Assembly: GCF_044647545.1 (NCBI RefSeq)
Contig: NZ_CP172818.1
Source of the DNA: Escherichia coli
GTDB taxonomy: Bacteria > Pseudomonadota > Gammaproteobacteria > Enterobacterales > Enterobacteriaceae
Length of the DNA: 64,000 nucleotides
Reading direction: 5' to 3' (one strand)
How positions within the stretch are numbered: position 1 is the stretch's first letter; the number at the start of each line of letters is the position of its first letter. Below, one piece after another: positions 10,512-48,367 of the stretch. A model generated the notes under the pieces. The model was not told where the DNA came from and made no database searches. It was given only the letters and a program-made list of their open reading frames with translations. Both the position numbers and the translations under genes were made by a program.

Positions 10512-11504
10512 TTATTCGCGGAACAGCGCTTCGATATTCAGCCCCTGCGTTTGCAGGATTTCGCGCAAACGGCGCAGGCCTTCAACCTGAATCTGGCGAA
10601 CACGTTCACGGGTGAGGCCAATTTCACGACCTACATCTTCCAGTGTTGCCGCTTCGTACCCCAGCAAACCGAATCGACGTGCCAGTACTTCACGCTGTTT
10701 GGCGTTCAGCTCGAACAGCCATTTGACGATGCTCTGCTTCATATCGTCATCTTGCGTGGTATCTTCCGGACCGTTCTCTTTTTCATCGGCCAGGATGTCC
10801 AGCAACGCTTTTTCGGAATCACCACCCAGCGGGGTGTCTACCGAGGTAATGCGCTCGTTAAGACGAAGCATACGGCTGACGTCATCAACTGGCTTATCCA
10901 GTTGCTCTGCGATCTCTTCCGCACTTGGTTCATGGTCCAGTTTATGGGACAACTCGCGTGCGGTTCGCAGGTAAACGTTCAGCTCCTTTACGATGTGAAT
11001 CGGCAAACGAATAGTACGGGTTTGGTTCATAATCGCCCGTTCGATCGTCTGGCGAATCCACCAGGTTGCGTATGTTGAGAAGCGGAAACCACGTTCCGGG
11101 TCAAACTTCTCTACCGCGCGGATCAGCCCCAGGTTGCCCTCTTCGATAAGATCCAGCAAAGCCAGACCACGATTGCCATAACGGCGGGCAATTTTTACCA
11201 CCAGACGCAAGTTACTCTCGATCATCCGGCGGCGAGAGGCAACATCTCCACGCAGTGCGCGACGCGCAAAATAAACTTCTTCTTCGGCCGTTAACAGTGG
11301 TGAATAACCAATCTCACCAAGGTAAAGCTGAGTCGCGTCCAGCACACGCTGTGTGGCTCCCTGCGATAACAGTTCCTCTTCGGCCAAATCGTTATCACTG
11401 GGTTCCTCTTCTACTAAGGCCTTTTCGTCAAAAACCTCAACTCCGTTCTCATCAAATTCCGCATCTTCATTTAAATCATGAACTTTCAGCGTATTCTGAC
11501 TCAT
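10512..11504 (-). CDS. rpoS: RNA polymerase sigma factor RpoS (sigma-38)
   Basis: Sigma-70-family protein starting [21 protein letters not shown] (330 aa); the ORF track extends 12 codons upstream to an earlier ATG. Confidence 0.95.
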
Positions 11505-26109: not shown

Positions 26110-26592
26110 TTACGCATTTTTGTTTGTGGTCAATACAAAATCTTCCAGAAGTTGCTGGCGTTCGCGCTTTCCCCACCAGGTCAACATCCTGGCCATTAAT
26201 GGCCAGTCAAGTACGGGTTCGGCGTGAGTAAGTAATCGACGTAACTGGACCATATCGGCTGTTCTGTCAGCCCGAATTAATTGAAAGATACGGCGCTCGT
26301 TAATTCTTCCACTATTGGCTAAAGCTCTTCCCAACGAGATACCTGTTGTTTGCTCCGGTTTTTTGTCCTGATGTCGGATGACATTCTTTCCTGCGCTCAG
26401 GCAAAACACCATGCGCAAAAGAGCCTGCTGGTGACGTGGGTTTTCCCAACCAAAAGGTTGCACCAGCCTATAAAACGCAGGGATATCGCGTAATTCATCA
26501 GGTTCTGAAACACGTCTAATTTGCGCACATGCTCCATTATCCAGTTGTTGCCAGGCTCGATATAAAGCCATTGCATCAATTTCATCAGCCAT
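26110..26592 (-). CDS. casB: Cascade small subunit CasB (Cse2)
   Basis: 160-aa ORF. Confidence 0.95.
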   Translation of the reverse strand: MADEIDAMALYRAWQQLDNGACAQIRRVSEPDELRDIPAFYRLVQPFGWENPRHQQALLRMVFCLSAGKNVIRHQDKKPEQTTGISLGRALANSGRINERRIFQLIRADRTADMVQLRRLLTHAEPVLDWPLMARMLTWWGKRERQQLLEDFVLTTNKNA

Positions 26593-28093
26593 TTGATGGC
26601 CCTCCTTGCGGTTTTAACTCCCGTAAATGTTTGTATAGCGTGGCGCGGGCAAGCGCTAATGTGCTTATTAATTTAGGATGATGTGCATAGGGAGCTTCAG
26701 ATTGATTAAATAGCATTTCACACAATTGATGAAGTTTGTCTCGTAAATCAGCTATTACCTCATCAGCTTGGGAAAAATTAATATTCGCCAGTACATCGGG
26801 AATTAATAATTCACTCTGTCGATAGAAATGCCTTTCTGCAGTCTCATGAACAGAGACTCCGGCCCCTTTGAAATCTTTATTTTTAAACCCTTCTGCAAAG
26901 GTATATAACGCCTTGCGTAAGGCTGTTTTATATCCCAAACCAACAGTCACTATTTCGTTTATCACATTGCCGTATTGTTGCCACCCCTGATTAAACATCA
27001 ACACATCATGACGCCGTTCAAGAATAGATGCTTGATTATTACGATATCCCCCCATAATCAATTCAAGAGGACTTTGCGGCGCAATATTTCTGAATTGATT
27101 CACAACCGCCGCCACGCGATTTCCATTTTCATTTTGAATAATCTTATCTACCACAACTCGGCTGATTTGTGTCCATGATGGTGCGGAGGTGGTGAAAGCA
27201 AGAAATTTTTCCTCAACCTCCCCTTTCTTGACTGTTACCAGACAAGGGGAATGCGGATGGGGCCATAGCCCATTAACTGTAAAGGTAAATTTTTCCTTAA
27301 GAAAACCGGTATAACGCAAATTGCTTTCCTGTCCACAGCAAGAACATTTACCAATCCCAATGGGATCGCATAATTCAATATGCGCTGGTTGCCAGAATAA
27401 GCCACGGACAAACCCAATTGACGAAGCTGGCACAGATTCATTGGGTTTGACAGGCTTAACCCAGGTAGGTTGGTTTTCCGTATGTAATTCATTGGGAAAT
27501 TGTTTTTGAAGACGAGGTATTGTGAGGACATTGAGTAATACCGTCGAGCGAAGATCGATCCCACATACGAAGGTGGTTATAGGTGTTCCTCCACGTAAAC
27601 CGCTTTTAAAGCCACCACCAAAACCAGGTGCCTGATTCGCCTGGTTGAATAACGCAATCGCAGTGCATCCACCACATAATGCTTCACCCTGCCCCGGTTG
27701 ATTGACAAATGCACAATTCGTCGCGCCGCTTACCCCAGCCAACAGTTTTTCCATTGGAGTCACATCATTTGCTTTGACACCTTTGGTCTGCATAAAGGGA
27801 TGTTCTGCGTGATTAAGGTAGAACATATCTATCCACGGCGCGATGAGTTGTTGAAACTCATCTTCAGTGAGCGGATTCATTATGCGATGTCGAAATTCAA
27901 CGTCATCTTTTGCCGGGGCGATAATTTGCCCAATGCAAACCAGCAGTGCTAAAGCGGCCAGTTCCATATCGTCACGGGGCAAACTTAATCGCCACTGATC
28001 TCTACTGCAGTATAGCGATTGCAGATTTATGATTTGGACTTCCCCCCCGTTTCGCGGGCGTACAGGGATCCAGTTATCAATAAGCAAATTCAT
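26585..28093 (-). CDS. casA: Cascade large subunit CasA (Cse1)
   Basis: 502-aa ORF; 8-bp overlap with casB. Confidence 0.95.
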   Translation of the reverse strand: MNLLIDNWIPVRPRNGGEVQIINLQSLYCSRDQWRLSLPRDDMELAALALLVCIGQIIAPAKDDVEFRHRIMNPLTEDEFQQLIAPWIDMFYLNHAEHPFMQTKGVKANDVTPMEKLLAGVSGATNCAFVNQPGQGEALCGGCTAIALFNQANQAPGFGGGFKSGLRGGTPITTFVCGIDLRSTVLLNVLTIPRLQKQFPNELHTENQPTWVKPVKPNESVPASSIGFVRGLFWQPAHIELCDPIGIGKCSCCGQESNLRYTGFLKEKFTFTVNGLWPHPHSPCLVTVKKGEVEEKFLAFTTSAPSWTQISRVVVDKIIQNENGNRVAAVVNQFRNIAPQSPLELIMGGYRNNQASILERRHDVLMFNQGWQQYGNVINEIVTVGLGYKTALRKALYTFAEGFKNKDFKGAGVSVHETAERHFYRQSELLIPDVLANINFSQADEVIADLRDKLHQLCEMLFNQSEAPYAHHPKLISTLALARATLYKHLRELKPQGGPSNG

Positions 28094-28507
28094 TTGTTCT
28101 CCTTCATATGCTCCGACATTTCTCCTGCATTTCTATACGTCGGCACACTTCCGTTATCGGTAAAAACAAAGAAAAAATACGGCGTAATTAATTCAATAAT
28201 CACATTCACTGCAAAAATATATTCATTGGTTTAATACAATTAACCTATGCATATATTAAGATGTGTTGAATTGTTTAAAGACAATAATGCATGCATTTCA
28301 AATCTGCAAGTTATTCGTTTTATTATCAAAGAAATTTTTAGTTATAATAATTACCATAAATTTTATTACATAAAATATTCATACTGTGAATATAAAATCT
28401 CATACCGGGAAATTAAAAGAAGATGTACATTGTGCACCTTCCCTACTTAAGTAGGGATAAACCGTTATTGGTCTTGTTATCGTCATTGATACCAATCATT
28501 CCCGAAG
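28094..28507 (-). promoter_or_regulatory. Strongly AT-rich cas3–casA intergenic region; site of the casABCDE12 promoter (Pcas), known in E. coli K-12 to be H-NS-silenced and LeuO-activated
   Basis: AT-rich 414-bp gap read directly; promoter role from established knowledge. Confidence 0.7.
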
Positions 28508-31174
28508 TTATTTGGGATTTGCAGGGATGACTCTGGTCATCCCTTCATCCCGAGTGTAGGTAATAACAATATTATTACCCTGCCAGATCCATCCATCCTG
28601 ATTCTGTTTCCCTTCCAGCCAAAGTACCCCATCTTCATCTACTACTTCAGAAAAATTACGTTTCCAGGTGAAGGGTACATTGACGCGATTAAGTGCTAAC
28701 GCCTCATACTGCTGTTCATGACTTAGGTCCTCGTAGACCTGGCCATCGAGCAGTTGTTTACCTGAAGACGTTTGTAAATAAGGCAATAATGGCAGGCTCA
28801 TTTCCCCATCCCTCGTTACCGCAAGAATTGTTTCATCGTTATCCTGCAAGCTATATTCTTCAGCCCACTGCAGAACCTTGCGAGCCTTGAACCTCTTTTC
28901 ACACTCAGCACTTTCATACTTATCCATGCCTTTGATGACCCATTCTGGCTCATCCATTTCAGCATCATCGTAAATGCTATCCAGCCATTGCCGGTAGGCA
29001 TCAGGGAAAAATAAGGATGCTCCATTAAGTTCCTCAATATGTTGCTGCGTCCGCCACATGACTCTAACGTTGCTATAAATATGCTCATGTCGTCCGTAAC
29101 CTTCGCCATCAGGCAGCAAAACGCTGGCAAGAGGAACCTCAAAACCAGCGGGACGATATTTGCGATGATGGCGATGTAAACGGCCCAATCGTTGGAAAAG
29201 TAAATCTGCGGGGCAATGCTGAGTAATTAACCAATCAAAATCAACGTCGAGTGATTGTTCCACGACCTGGGTGGCGACAAGTATCCGTCCAACATTTCGC
29301 TTCCCATTTTTGCCGAAATTGCTAATAACTCGATTCTCTTTTTCACGACGATCGTTCAGCGTAAAGCGCGCATGAAACAAATCTATATCTACTTGCGTGT
29401 TATTTAGTTCCTTTAACCGTTGGTGGCATAGTTGTGCAACATCAACCAAATTGCAGATAAGACAGACTTGTGCACCCGCATTTGCCGCTACGATCATTCG
29501 CTCTAACATCCTAAGGTCAGGTAACATGTCAGCTAAATAAATAGGTTCTGGCCGAATCGAAAAGCGGGGCGGGAGTTGTTCTGAATGAGCTAACAGATCA
29601 AAACGTTGTGCACCATTCACACCTCGCCAGTTAATGAGTGGATATGCGGAGTTATTTTCCTCTGGATCTGTATGCAGACCATAAGTATCCAGAAGTTTCT
29701 GTTTTTGTTTCATTGGTAGAGTTGCGGAAAGAAGAATAACACTCCCCCCCACATCAGCCTGAGCCTTGAGCACAGCCTCCAGCAAGCCGTTCATATACGT
29801 GTCGTAAGCATGAACTTCATCAACAATTAAAACACTTCGACCAATTCCCAAACCACGGATAAAGCGGTGTTTAACTGGCAATACCGATATCAACACCTGA
29901 TCAATCGTGCAAACGCCGATTTGCCCAAGAAACACTTTCTTATTGCTTTGTGACAACCACTGACAACACTGAACCCATGCTTCTTCTTGCCCCTGCTCAG
30001 TAAATGCGCGTGATTTTATTGATTGAAAAAGGTGGTTAAAACGTGAATTACCATGAGCAAGAATAAGATTTGGGGAGGTAAATAAACGGCTCGCGTTCGC
30101 TTCCATTCTGCTGAGCATTGCATTTGCAGTAGCTTGTGTAGGGAGGGCAAAAATAACACTATCCGCAAGTTGTTGGTCAATAAGTTTCCAGGCATAGGCC
30201 AGCGCTGTTTCGGTTTTACCTGATCCCGTAGGTGCCTCAATCACCGTCAGCCCGGGAGCTGCAGGAAGAGCATCAACTAACACTTGTAATTGTCTGGGTT
30301 GATAGCCATTGTCCAGTAGAGCATGAACACCTTCATAACATCGCTTATTTGATACAAGGCCGCTCAACTCCAATACCCGGCTCGCATCCTGCTGTCGGTC
30401 CTGGAAATACGTTCTTAGAGCATTTATGTTGGAAGGTGCATCCTCTTTAAACAGAAAGGTATTCGTTGTAGTCCAGGAGCCTAACCAGTCAGCAAGCGAG
30501 CAAAAACCTGCTAACAGTGATGAACAATCAGGTGGTATATCGTTTATAGATAACCCGGCTGGCGTTAAAAATAATGCTTCGAGTACAGATATCCACTCCT
30601 CACGAGCCTGTTTATCTTGCGCAGCATAAGATGCCAGAGAAGCTGGCATTTCCCAACGCGACTTATCTTGATCCTGGGAATGTAATATAAAACCATGATG
30701 TCCTGTAACGGCCTCTACCCATGGAAACCAGGACTCATAAGGATGAGGAGCGGCATCAAAAAAACTGAAAAAATCCCCGGGAGATTGCTCTGAAAGTGAA
30801 TCCTGGTTAAACCAATACAGACCGGCTGCACCATGATTAAATTTACGGCACATTTGTGTTGATGGACCATTAAGTGATGGCGTTGCAGGATTTAATTTCA
30901 GCCAACTTTCTGCTGATTTATATTGGAATCGTATATCAAACTTTCCGATATCATGAAGGGCAATGAAAAATAACAGCCAGGCTTTCACCATCTGTTTTGA
31001 TAGCATTTCATTTTGGCAAAAAGCATTTTGTAGTACGACTGATTGTTCCCACCAGCAATCTGCAACAGCTGCAACATCCAGGCAATGATAAATCAACAGA
31101 TGAATATCATTTCCTTTCGTCAGGCTTTTTGAGGATTTCCCCCAGTAATGACATATATATTTAAAAGGTTCCAT
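28508..31174 (-). CDS. cas3: CRISPR-associated nuclease/helicase Cas3 (HD nuclease + SF2 helicase)
   Basis: 888-aa ORF starting MEPFKYICHYWGKSS; helicase motifs APTGSGKTE and DEVH. Confidence 0.96.
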   Translation of the reverse strand: MEPFKYICHYWGKSSKSLTKGNDIHLLIYHCLDVAAVADCWWEQSVVLQNAFCQNEMLSKQMVKAWLLFFIALHDIGKFDIRFQYKSAESWLKLNPATPSLNGPSTQMCRKFNHGAAGLYWFNQDSLSEQSPGDFFSFFDAAPHPYESWFPWVEAVTGHHGFILHSQDQDKSRWEMPASLASYAAQDKQAREEWISVLEALFLTPAGLSINDIPPDCSSLLAGFCSLADWLGSWTTTNTFLFKEDAPSNINALRTYFQDRQQDASRVLELSGLVSNKRCYEGVHALLDNGYQPRQLQVLVDALPAAPGLTVIEAPTGSGKTETALAYAWKLIDQQLADSVIFALPTQATANAMLSRMEANASRLFTSPNLILAHGNSRFNHLFQSIKSRAFTEQGQEEAWVQCCQWLSQSNKKVFLGQIGVCTIDQVLISVLPVKHRFIRGLGIGRSVLIVDEVHAYDTYMNGLLEAVLKAQADVGGSVILLSATLPMKQKQKLLDTYGLHTDPEENNSAYPLINWRGVNGAQRFDLLAHSEQLPPRFSIRPEPIYLADMLPDLRMLERMIVAANAGAQVCLICNLVDVAQLCHQRLKELNNTQVDIDLFHARFTLNDRREKENRVISNFGKNGKRNVGRILVATQVVEQSLDVDFDWLITQHCPADLLFQRLGRLHRHHRKYRPAGFEVPLASVLLPDGEGYGRHEHIYSNVRVMWRTQQHIEELNGASLFFPDAYRQWLDSIYDDAEMDEPEWVIKGMDKYESAECEKRFKARKVLQWAEEYSLQDNDETILAVTRDGEMSLPLLPYLQTSSGKQLLDGQVYEDLSHEQQYEALALNRVNVPFTWKRNFSEVVDEDGVLWLEGKQNQDGWIWQGNNIVITYTRDEGMTRVIPANPK

Positions 31175-31479
31175 TAATAGCCTCCCTGTTTTTTTAGTAT
31201 TATCGATGATATCAGTGGACTATTTTTCGATGCTGCTCATAAATATCGAATTACAGTGATATACACATGTCTTGCCTCCCTGCAAAGAAGAGACTAACAT
31301 CCGAATTGCTTAGGTTCGAACGCTGGCCTCAGGTTGATAGAAATATCGCCTGGGGCTTTTGTCCATCTGGTACCTCGCGAATGCTTAATGCCAGACAGCC
31401 TCAAGCACCCAACGCCATTCTATACCTGTTAATTCTTCCAACGACGTTCACGTTTAAAATCAGGAATGCTGCTCGCAAA

Positions 31480-31516
31480 ATAAAAACGCCCCCATCATTT
31501 CTGACAGAGGCGTTTA
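31480..31516 (-). terminator. Putative terminator after cysH (stem aaacgcc / ggcgttt followed by a T-rich tract on the minus strand)
   Basis: Inverted repeat with a large loop, then TTTTTATTTT on the minus strand. Confidence 0.5.
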
Positions 31517-31532
31517 ATTTATCCGGCAATAT

Positions 31533-47359: not shown

Positions 47360-47374
47360 TGAACATACCTGAAT

Positions 47375-47511
47375 GGTTATCCCCGCTGACGCGGGGAACA
47401 TAAGTTCGACAACTTAAAAAATGATAACAAGTCCGGTTTATCCCCGCTGATGCAGGGAACATAATAAAAACTTTAACTAGTTCGTTTATCCCTGTTGTTA
47501 CAAGGAATATT
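47375..47511 (-). CRISPR. Degenerate CRISPR remnant: three decayed type I-E-like repeats
   Basis: ggttatccccgctgacgcggggaacat; cggtttatccccgctgatgcagggaacat; cgtttatccctgttgttacaaggaatat. Confidence 0.75.
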
Positions 47512-47964
47512 AACTACACTCGATGTCTTTAGAATAAAAGACAATACGAATCGCACTTTATCAATTTTCACTTAAAGTATGAACTGGATATCTTTATTCA
47601 TAAGAACTATTCATCAACAGCGTATAGAGGCGGTTATGTAAAACCACTCATTAGCCTCAAAACAAAGACAAACTTCCAGATTTATTACTTAATCAATGAA
47701 TAACAAGCTTAAAAAATACACTGTTATTCTAAAGAAAAAATTAACAGGCATTAATTAATATTAAAAAAAATAATATATTAAAATTTCTTAACGGTTTAAG
47801 GATTATACAAATAACACTTTGATTAAATTTGATTTTTTGTATCGATAATTGTGAACTTATCTGGCATGGAGAACTATTTTGAACATGAGGTGTTATGTGG
47901 ATATGTTGCTTATTACAAGTACAGCTAATATAAAAACTTGAGAAAGAGATAACGGGTTATATGG

Positions 47965-48367
47965 TGGTTCATCCCCGCTGGCGCGGGGAACACGTCTTTT
48001 TGACCGGCCGGTAAATCGTCTGCCTGCGGTTTATCCCCGCTGGCGCGGGGAACACAAACCATTCTCGCAATCAAGGACTATTCCTAGACGGTTTATCCCC
48101 GCTGGCGCGGGGAACACGGTCGCAGGGAATACAAAGCCGTGCATCCTGCTCGGTTTATCCCCGCTGGCGCGGGGAACACTGGCTCTGCAACAGCAGCACT
48201 ATGACCCCGTCGGTTTATCCCCGCTGGCGCGGGGAACACGAAAAGCTTATGATCGTTAATGCCGCAAACACCGGTTTATCCCCGCTGGCGCGGGGAACAC
48301 ATTACACCTATGTGCGAGCGCCCGGTTTTTGCCGCTAGCGGTTTATCCCCGCTGGCGCGGGGAACAC
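47965..48367 (-). CRISPR. Orphan CRISPR array, 7 repeats and 6 spacers, repeat variant ending GAACAC (plus strand CGGTTTATCCCCGCTGGCGCGGGGAACAC)
   Basis: Repeat starts at about 47965, 48027, 48089, 48151, 48211, 48272, 48339; the first repeat is a variant (ggttcatcc). Confidence 0.95.

Follow-up and report, generated by a model that had tools for sequence, protein, structure and literature searches.

The reference CRISPR system is the type I-E system of Escherichia coli K-12, whose silence under laboratory conditions has long prompted the question of its purpose. The promoter region between cas3 and casA is itself known biology, described since 2010. H-NS silences the cas promoters, LeuO activates the promoter of the casA operon (Pcas8e) and CRP represses it (PMC10011333), and a Pcas-lacZ fusion rises from 6 to 568 units under LeuO (PMC6698644). 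The same region holds anti-Pcas, a divergent and H-NS-repressed promoter on the opposite strand of which it is said that 'its role is unknown', suggested roles being in cas3 termination or translation (PMC10011333). Here we examine this gap in a 64-kb stretch of E. coli DNA, referred to throughout as the window. The analysis points to a bidirectional type I-E cas control region, in which an H-NS/LeuO layer is overlaid by a layer of CreR-type autorepression by Cascade, a reading to which we assign a probability of roughly 0.7.

Results

Composition and K-12 identity of the cas3-casA gap

In the ORF listing of the window the gap is exactly 414 bp long (Table 1). The names of the flanking genes follow the RefSeq annotation of a strain with 100% identity across the gap, in which the locus has its usual context and order of cysH-cas3-casABCDE-cas1-cas2-CRISPR-iap. 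GC content is 30.0% in the gap and 23.6% in its core (28160-28435), compared with 41-50% in the flanking cas genes and 50.3% in the window, and nine runs of four to six A or T bases occur within it. The sequence-only reading from which this analysis started was therefore right to describe a gap much richer in AT than the coding DNA nearby and containing multiple A/T tracts. Its further term 'extremely' AT-rich is fair locally, with just 0.46% of all 414-bp windows equally AT-rich, but one region alone, beside the second CRISPR array at ~47.4-48.0 kb, is richer still. That array (47373-48367, minus strand) has two blocks, one of seven repeats (47965-48367, GTGTTCCCCGCGCCAGCGGGGATAAACCG) and one of three degenerate repeats (47373-47510); between them the window reaches its highest AT content, with GC at 26% near 47523. 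The gap between cas3 and cysH (30900-31530) is likewise AT-rich at 35-39% GC, and in K-12 it carries an annotated small RNA, sokX (11354-11412 of the K-12 locus, L002).

Table 1. Coordinates of the cas3-casA gap, its borders and its predicted elements in the window
Feature	Position	Strand	Basis or remark
casA (cse1/cas8e)	26585..28093	-	ORF listing
cas3	28508..31174	-	ORF listing
cas3-casA (cas8e) intergenic region, K-12 'IGLB' region; H-NS-silenced AT-rich regulatory DNA	28094..28507	.	Coordinates, GC 30%, K-12 identity, literature
39-codon GTG ORF in putative casA 5' UTR	28090..28209	-	TGA stop overlaps casA ATG (ATGA); no Shine-Dalgarno
casA Shine-Dalgarno AAGGAG	28099..28104	-	Sequence reading; 5 nt upstream of ATG 28093-28091
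Putative Pcas -10 hexamer TATTGT	28281..28286	-	17-nt spacing from -35 constant in six lineages
Putative Pcas -35 hexamer TTGCAG	28304..28309	-	Overlaps PAM complement; alignment at PAM
AAG, canonical type I-E PAM of predicted self-target	28308..28310	+	Motif search
Protospacer-like target	28311..28341	+	Positions 1-17 (28311-28327) match pseudo-spacer except 6, 9 and 12
TATAAT, candidate anti-Pcas -10	28343..28348	+	Read from sequence; tentative
Perfect 7-N5-7 palindrome ATATTCA-TACTG-TGAATAT, probable LeuO site IIa core	28375..28393	.	Sole such palindrome in gap
psiR1, degenerate repeat ACCTTCCCTACTTAAGTAGGGATAAACCG	28436..28464	+	Hairpin CCCUAC/GUAGGG; intact 5'-handle AUAAACCG (ATAAACCG) at 28457-28464
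Predicted mature cr-like RNA, 60 nt	28457..28516	+	From known Cas6e cleavage position in canonical repeat
Pseudo-spacer psiS, 31 nt, TTATTGGTCTTGTTATCGTCATTGATACCAA	28465..28495	+	Between psiR1 and psiR2
psiR2, degenerate repeat TCATTCCCGAAGTTATTTGGGATTTGCAG	28496..28524	+	3'-handle hairpin UUCCCGAA-GUUA-UUUGGGAU kept

The gap of K-12 MG1655 also measures 414 bp and is identical to that of the window at 408/414 bases (98.6%). One of the six SNPs falls at position 17 of the target described below, and one each at positions 12 and 28 of the pseudo-spacer. Compared with the K-12 IGLB region (Pul et al. 2010; Westra et al. 2010, via PMC10011333, PMC6698644), the window has the same genes, the same length, the LeuO-core-like palindrome, the SlyA site and the published primer sites; the differences are the six SNPs and that Pcas expression is known for K-12. 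The SlyA site 'TTATTGAATTAA', reported for K-12 at 100 bp upstream of casA, maps to 28188-28199 in the window, and published K-12 features can therefore be transferred to it. Two LeuO footprints have been reported in the K-12 region. The palindrome at 28375-28393 is identical in K-12, and its form agrees with how the LeuO IIa core has been described in print, the comparison being with that description. GC values of 30% in the gap and 24% in its core against 50% in the window are those expected of H-NS-bound DNA, and a search with the H-NS motif TCGATAAATT returned one 8/10 match in the gap, which is not above chance. Identity to K-12 and the K-12 literature together support the sequence-only reading in its claim of an H-NS-silenced, LeuO-activated Pcas with a divergent anti-Pcas, and it is a reasonable inference that the locus would be cryptic under laboratory conditions in the present strain too. 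As an account of regulation that reading was nevertheless incomplete, having missed a mini-CRISPR at the cas3 end of the gap.

A degenerate mini-CRISPR antisense to cas

On the plus strand, antisense to the cas genes, psiR1, a pseudo-spacer and psiR2 make up a degenerate two-repeat mini-CRISPR. The array repeat of the locus reads GAGTTCCCCGCGCCAGCGGGGATAAACCG on the cas strand. psiR1 is identical to it at 19/29 positions, with 8/8 in the 8-nt 5'-handle, and the psiR1 stem differs from the repeat stem by two compensated pairs. psiR2 retains the UUCCC...GGGAU base of the hairpin and accommodates the cas3 stop codon (28508-28510) within its loop. When folded alone, the repeat, psiR1 and psiR2 give the same dot-bracket structure at -15.1, -10.3 and -8.5 kcal/mol respectively, and the minimum-energy structure predicted for the 181-nt transcript lacks the weaker psiR2 hairpin. 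The pseudo-spacer, at 31 nt, is shorter than 32-33 nt.

The 19/29 identity of psiR1 is not significant alone, as 18/29 is reached by chance at about ten sites in the window. Because this identity lies within chance, the case for a mini-CRISPR rests on geometry and comparative data. A seven-pair hairpin followed by a handle matching at at least 6/8 positions is found outside both CRISPR arrays at psiR1 only (128 kb, both strands). A scan of metagenomes with the psiR2-type hairpin pattern, which serves as a negative control, returned 120 unrelated matches, of which one had a handle-like octamer upstream and none of its own repeat-like hairpin before it. A canonical CRISPR array, for which at least three near-identical repeats with a leader would be expected, was rejected given that the element has two units only, a repeat identity of 19/29 at most and an orientation opposite to that of the arrays. 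An Rfam covariance-model search matched no family and gave chance snoRNA-type matches only (E > 1), and no copies or mimics of the mini-array were found in the phage records, plasmids and viral contigs searched.

A partial self-target adjoining the putative casA promoter

On the strand with the sequence of the crRNA spacer, a type I-E protospacer is preceded by an AAG PAM. The pseudo-spacer (TTATTGGTCTTGTTATC...) has such a counterpart within its own gap, pairing with AAG-TTATTCGTTTTATTATC on the same strand at 28308-28327 with mismatches at positions 6, 9 and 12 only. Cascade leaves every sixth base of a guide unpaired, and the mismatches at 6 and 12 fall at these positions, which leaves position 9 as the one real mismatch. 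The PAM and seed together (AAGTTATTNGT) occur once in 64 kb against 0.14 occurrences expected, and no shuffled spacer out of 5000 gave an equally good AAG-flanked match inside the gap. Within the target seed a single SNP was observed, in strain 13C1065T (L095) at the equivalent of window position 28317, where position 7 changes from G to T; in the annotation of this strain cas3 is a partial pseudogene.

Alignment of the cas strands at the PAM gives the pattern TTGnnn-N17-TAttnT in every locus, with TTCCAT as the -35 hexamer in L088. The PAM complement is CTT, and the TTGnnn hexamer starts from its second base. We infer that this pattern is Pcas, with a transcription start near 28274 on the minus strand. 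A consensus promoter scan of the gap, a tool without discriminating power in DNA of such AT content, returned two sites against 3.4 expected. On the opposite strand the TATAAT at 28343-28348 would be consistent with an anti-Pcas start ~80 bp upstream of Pcas, as Pul et al. reportedly found. Cascade occupying 28308-28341 would in that case overlie the -35 region of each divergent promoter. Since the target is upstream of the Pcas -35 and does not cover the -10 or the start site, the strength of any repression is uncertain.

Conservation of the module in long-gap relatives

Among species representatives K-12-type Cas3 has few close relatives, and a Cas3-based scan of species genomes yielded two useful ones only; the usable loci came from CasA homologues of 57-77% identity together with contig look-ups. 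The module is present in eight of nine long-gap loci and in none of seven short-gap loci, the latter being relatives whose cas3 and casA either overlap or are at most 94 bp apart, and which have no psiR1. A long AT-rich gap therefore accompanies the module. The long-gap locus that lacks it is a K-12-like Salmonella locus with a decayed psiR1 and no target, from which it follows that the module can be lost. Seven related long-gap loci, representing six lineages beyond E. coli, share the layout of an antisense psiR1 with its handle just past the cas3 stop, followed by the pseudo-spacer and then the psiR2 hairpin. The gap of the L088 type was not found in E. coli genomes. In X. bovienii (L089) psiR1 is preceded on the antisense strand by a tandem triplication of the 5' part of the repeat (CTGTTCCCC CTGTTCCCC CTGTTCCCCGCG...).

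In each module-bearing locus a partial match to the pseudo-spacer, flanked by AAG, lies on the same strand of the gap, 185-224 nt away from the casA ATG. The pseudo-spacer sequence differs between lineages: it begins TTATTgGT in E. coli, TTATTgGC in L088, TTGCTtTG in L099, TTATTtTG and TTATTcTG in two Xenorhabdus species, TTACTgTG in Pokkaliibacter and TCTGTtTT in Marinomonas. The target changes with it, so that spacer and target co-vary. For each of the own-gap pairs of E. coli, L088, L087, L089, L004 and L092, at most one of 5000 shuffles was as good; the L099 pair (seed TTGCT-TG) was read by eye and stands outside the shuffle set. Position 6 is mismatched in all module loci, as is position 12 except in K-12, where it matches. 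This regularity exceeds what neutral drift at unpaired positions would lead one to expect, within few independent lineages. Pairing stops at positions 13-17; past that point pseudo-spacers differ in length, with a range of 20-33 nt.

The hairpins are conserved as structures. Across the repeats and pseudo-repeats of five loci all 98 of 98 stem cells are paired and 17 double-sided changes are seen; none of 500 shuffles equalled this, and slid controls gave 39-60% pairing. The co-varying stem pairs are the top three, which were unused in finding psiR2.

These comparisons bear on the strongest alternative, that the gap is an H-NS-silenced promoter region only, its hairpins the functionless relic of an old array and anti-Pcas at most antisense to the 3' end of cas3. 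Such a relic would accommodate the chance-level identity of psiR1 to the repeat, the Salmonella relative demonstrates that decay does occur, and an anti-Pcas whose role is called unknown might indeed concern cas3 termination or translation (PMC10011333). A relic is not expected, however, to preserve all 8/8 handle positions and stems in which the changes are fully compensated, nor a PAM-flanked spacer and target that co-vary across lineages with no more than 1/5000 shuffles as good for each tested pair. We consider this explanation improbable, and CreR-type autorepression by Cascade, guided by RNA from anti-Pcas, the most likely function of the element.

A small hydrophobic peptide upstream of casA in relatives

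Between the targeted promoter and casA five of the relatives (L099, L087, L089, L004 and L092) have an unannotated gene for a conserved peptide of 38-41 aa, with the consensus ..INxVxPxGIAxxxLLVAxLAL.. and a hydrophobic C-terminal helix. The genes lie at 7853-7969 in L087, ~7848-7988 in L089, 5356-5472 in L004 and 7861-7983 in L092, and upstream of 3201 in L099. The bearers belong to Xenorhabdus, Marinomonas, Pokkaliibacter and two metagenomic lineages. The peptides have no NCBIfam or PADLOC family and a non-significant PHROG match (E = 0.27), and a protein database search with them returned the query itself alone. The 39-codon GTG ORF of E. coli sits where the relatives encode the peptide and does not align to its hydrophobic part; it may be a decayed remnant of the same gene.

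The arrangement recalls CreTA, and a second alternative is an addiction or anti-anti-CRISPR device in which a toxic membrane peptide encoded upstream of casA is repressed by Cascade and freed when Cascade is lost or inhibited. The peptide of the five relatives is a possible candidate, by position and predicted helix, for a membrane toxin under such repression, and toxin-antitoxin genes are reportedly enriched beside mini-arrays, those of type I-E included. Against this, the peptide matches no toxin or defence family, and E. coli has no intact homologue, its GTG ORF being without a ribosome-binding site. A CreTA-type toxin gene under the repressed promoter is accordingly not supported for E. 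coli, where an intact small hydrophobic ORF is lacking. As the function of the present element we judge this alternative less probable still than a relic. Least probable of all, to the point of being very unlikely, is that the hairpins are transcription terminators or 3'-end stabilisers of cas3 mRNA, since, although both lie at or just past the cas3 stop codon, the cas strand has no U-run after either and a terminator scan of the gap finds none, on which grounds an intrinsic cas3 terminator was rejected, and the handle AUAAACCG and the spacer/target/PAM relation make sense on the antisense strand only.

Discussion

Our results provide a model for how the cas3-casA gap may control the type I-E locus in both directions. 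The first layer is established for K-12 and would carry over to the window by virtue of 98.6% identity. H-NS would coat the AT-rich DNA and silence both Pcas, directed towards casA, and the divergent anti-Pcas, while LeuO, and also SlyA, would bind the gap and counteract this silencing. The second layer would be autorepression of the CreR type. A transcript from anti-Pcas would traverse psiR1, the pseudo-spacer and psiR2, and Cas6e, once made, would cleave both hairpins to release a cr-like RNA of ~60 nt (28457-28516) for loading into Cascade. Nucleotides 1-17 of the RNA would pair at the AAG-flanked site whose PAM overlaps the Pcas -35, and the same target would span the candidate -35 region of anti-Pcas. 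Cascade positioned there would block RNA polymerase, resulting in negative feedback on the cas genes and on the guide itself. With pairing stopping at ~17 nt the R-loop would remain incomplete, and Cas3 should therefore spare the chromosome. Strains mutated in hns express cas strongly, so any feedback must be partial.

The mini-CRISPR probably explains both anti-Pcas and the length of the gap. A broader proposal, which we advance tentatively and against the odds, is that anti-Pcas is the precursor of a cr-like RNA silencing both promoters, that LeuO, its high-affinity site being in the leader of this RNA, may turn cas on and the repressor RNA off together, and that in the relatives the Cascade-repressed promoter first transcribes the peptide, which could be the toxin of a type I-E CreTA-like safeguard since lost by E. 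coli.

Shmakov et al. 2023 (bioRxiv 10.1101/2023.03.03.530964) predicted a mini-array in an E. coli I-E locus; in their study an I-F1 mini-array alone was tested experimentally, and it was validated. Their E. coli mini-array lies between cas3 and cas8, is transcribed opposite to cas3 and matches its target partially in the seed, next to an AAG PAM; its target overlaps an H-NS site just upstream of Pcas and its start region overlaps LeuO and CRP sites. Matched by these described properties, it is almost certainly the element reported here. The text of Shmakov et al. 2023 makes no mention of anti-Pcas, and no literature text was found that ties the E. coli mini-array to anti-Pcas or reports an experimental test of it in E. 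coli. The element itself is thus already described, and what the present analysis may add is the fixed geometry of PAM and -35, the association of long gaps with the module and the small peptide of the relatives.

A functional precedent is CreR of the Salmonella enterica type I-E locus: it uses E. coli Cascade to repress PcasA, and competing crRNAs lift the repression (Liu et al. 2023, bioRxiv 10.1101/2023.03.10.532045). Like the E. coli element, CreR is a degenerate mini-CRISPR in the cas3-casA gap that has kept the 5' handle in psiR1 and the 3' handle in psiR2, with an AAG PAM and a partial match adjoining the casA promoter. The two differ in their pseudo-spacers, that of Salmonella being unrelated, starting with TAG and matching at 15 consecutive positions, and in the distance from target to casA, which is ~140 bp in Salmonella and 217 bp here. 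Salmonella CreR is experimentally validated, whereas the E. coli element is a prediction. In CreTA and CreAP (Haloarcula I-B and Acinetobacter I-F) a cr-like RNA likewise guides Cascade to a promoter within the cas locus, but there a toxin gene is repressed, and the E. coli gap is without an intact toxin candidate while the relatives may have one. The sequence features by which CreR/CreA-type elements are recognised were found in the present one, namely a two-repeat layout outside the array, handles, compensated stems, a PAM-flanked partial match and co-variation.

If the model is correct, cas expression in the reference system would be under Cascade-guided feedback besides H-NS and LeuO, and anti-Pcas would gain a function. 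It would also explain why a long cas3-casA gap is kept in some I-E loci and is missing from close relatives. Engineered strains in which the region has been replaced or deleted would have lost a feedback loop as well. The small hydrophobic peptide of the relatives is a separate and testable lead.

The gap is found in 1133 of 5426 complete E. coli genomes, the nearest species-level relatives of its Cas3 are in Marinomonas at ~55% identity, and relatives of its CasA are dispersed among Xenorhabdus, Pokkaliibacter, Cronobacter and Pantoea. This patchy occurrence and the scatter of relatives suggest horizontal spread of the present I-E variant. IS1 has inserted repeatedly in the region. In an E. 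coli-like contig labelled as a Bacillota MAG (L003, 3260-3294) an IS1 end lies in the casA 5' UTR, and in strain 1506 (L097, 748-1445) IS1 stands in place of casA and most of the gap.
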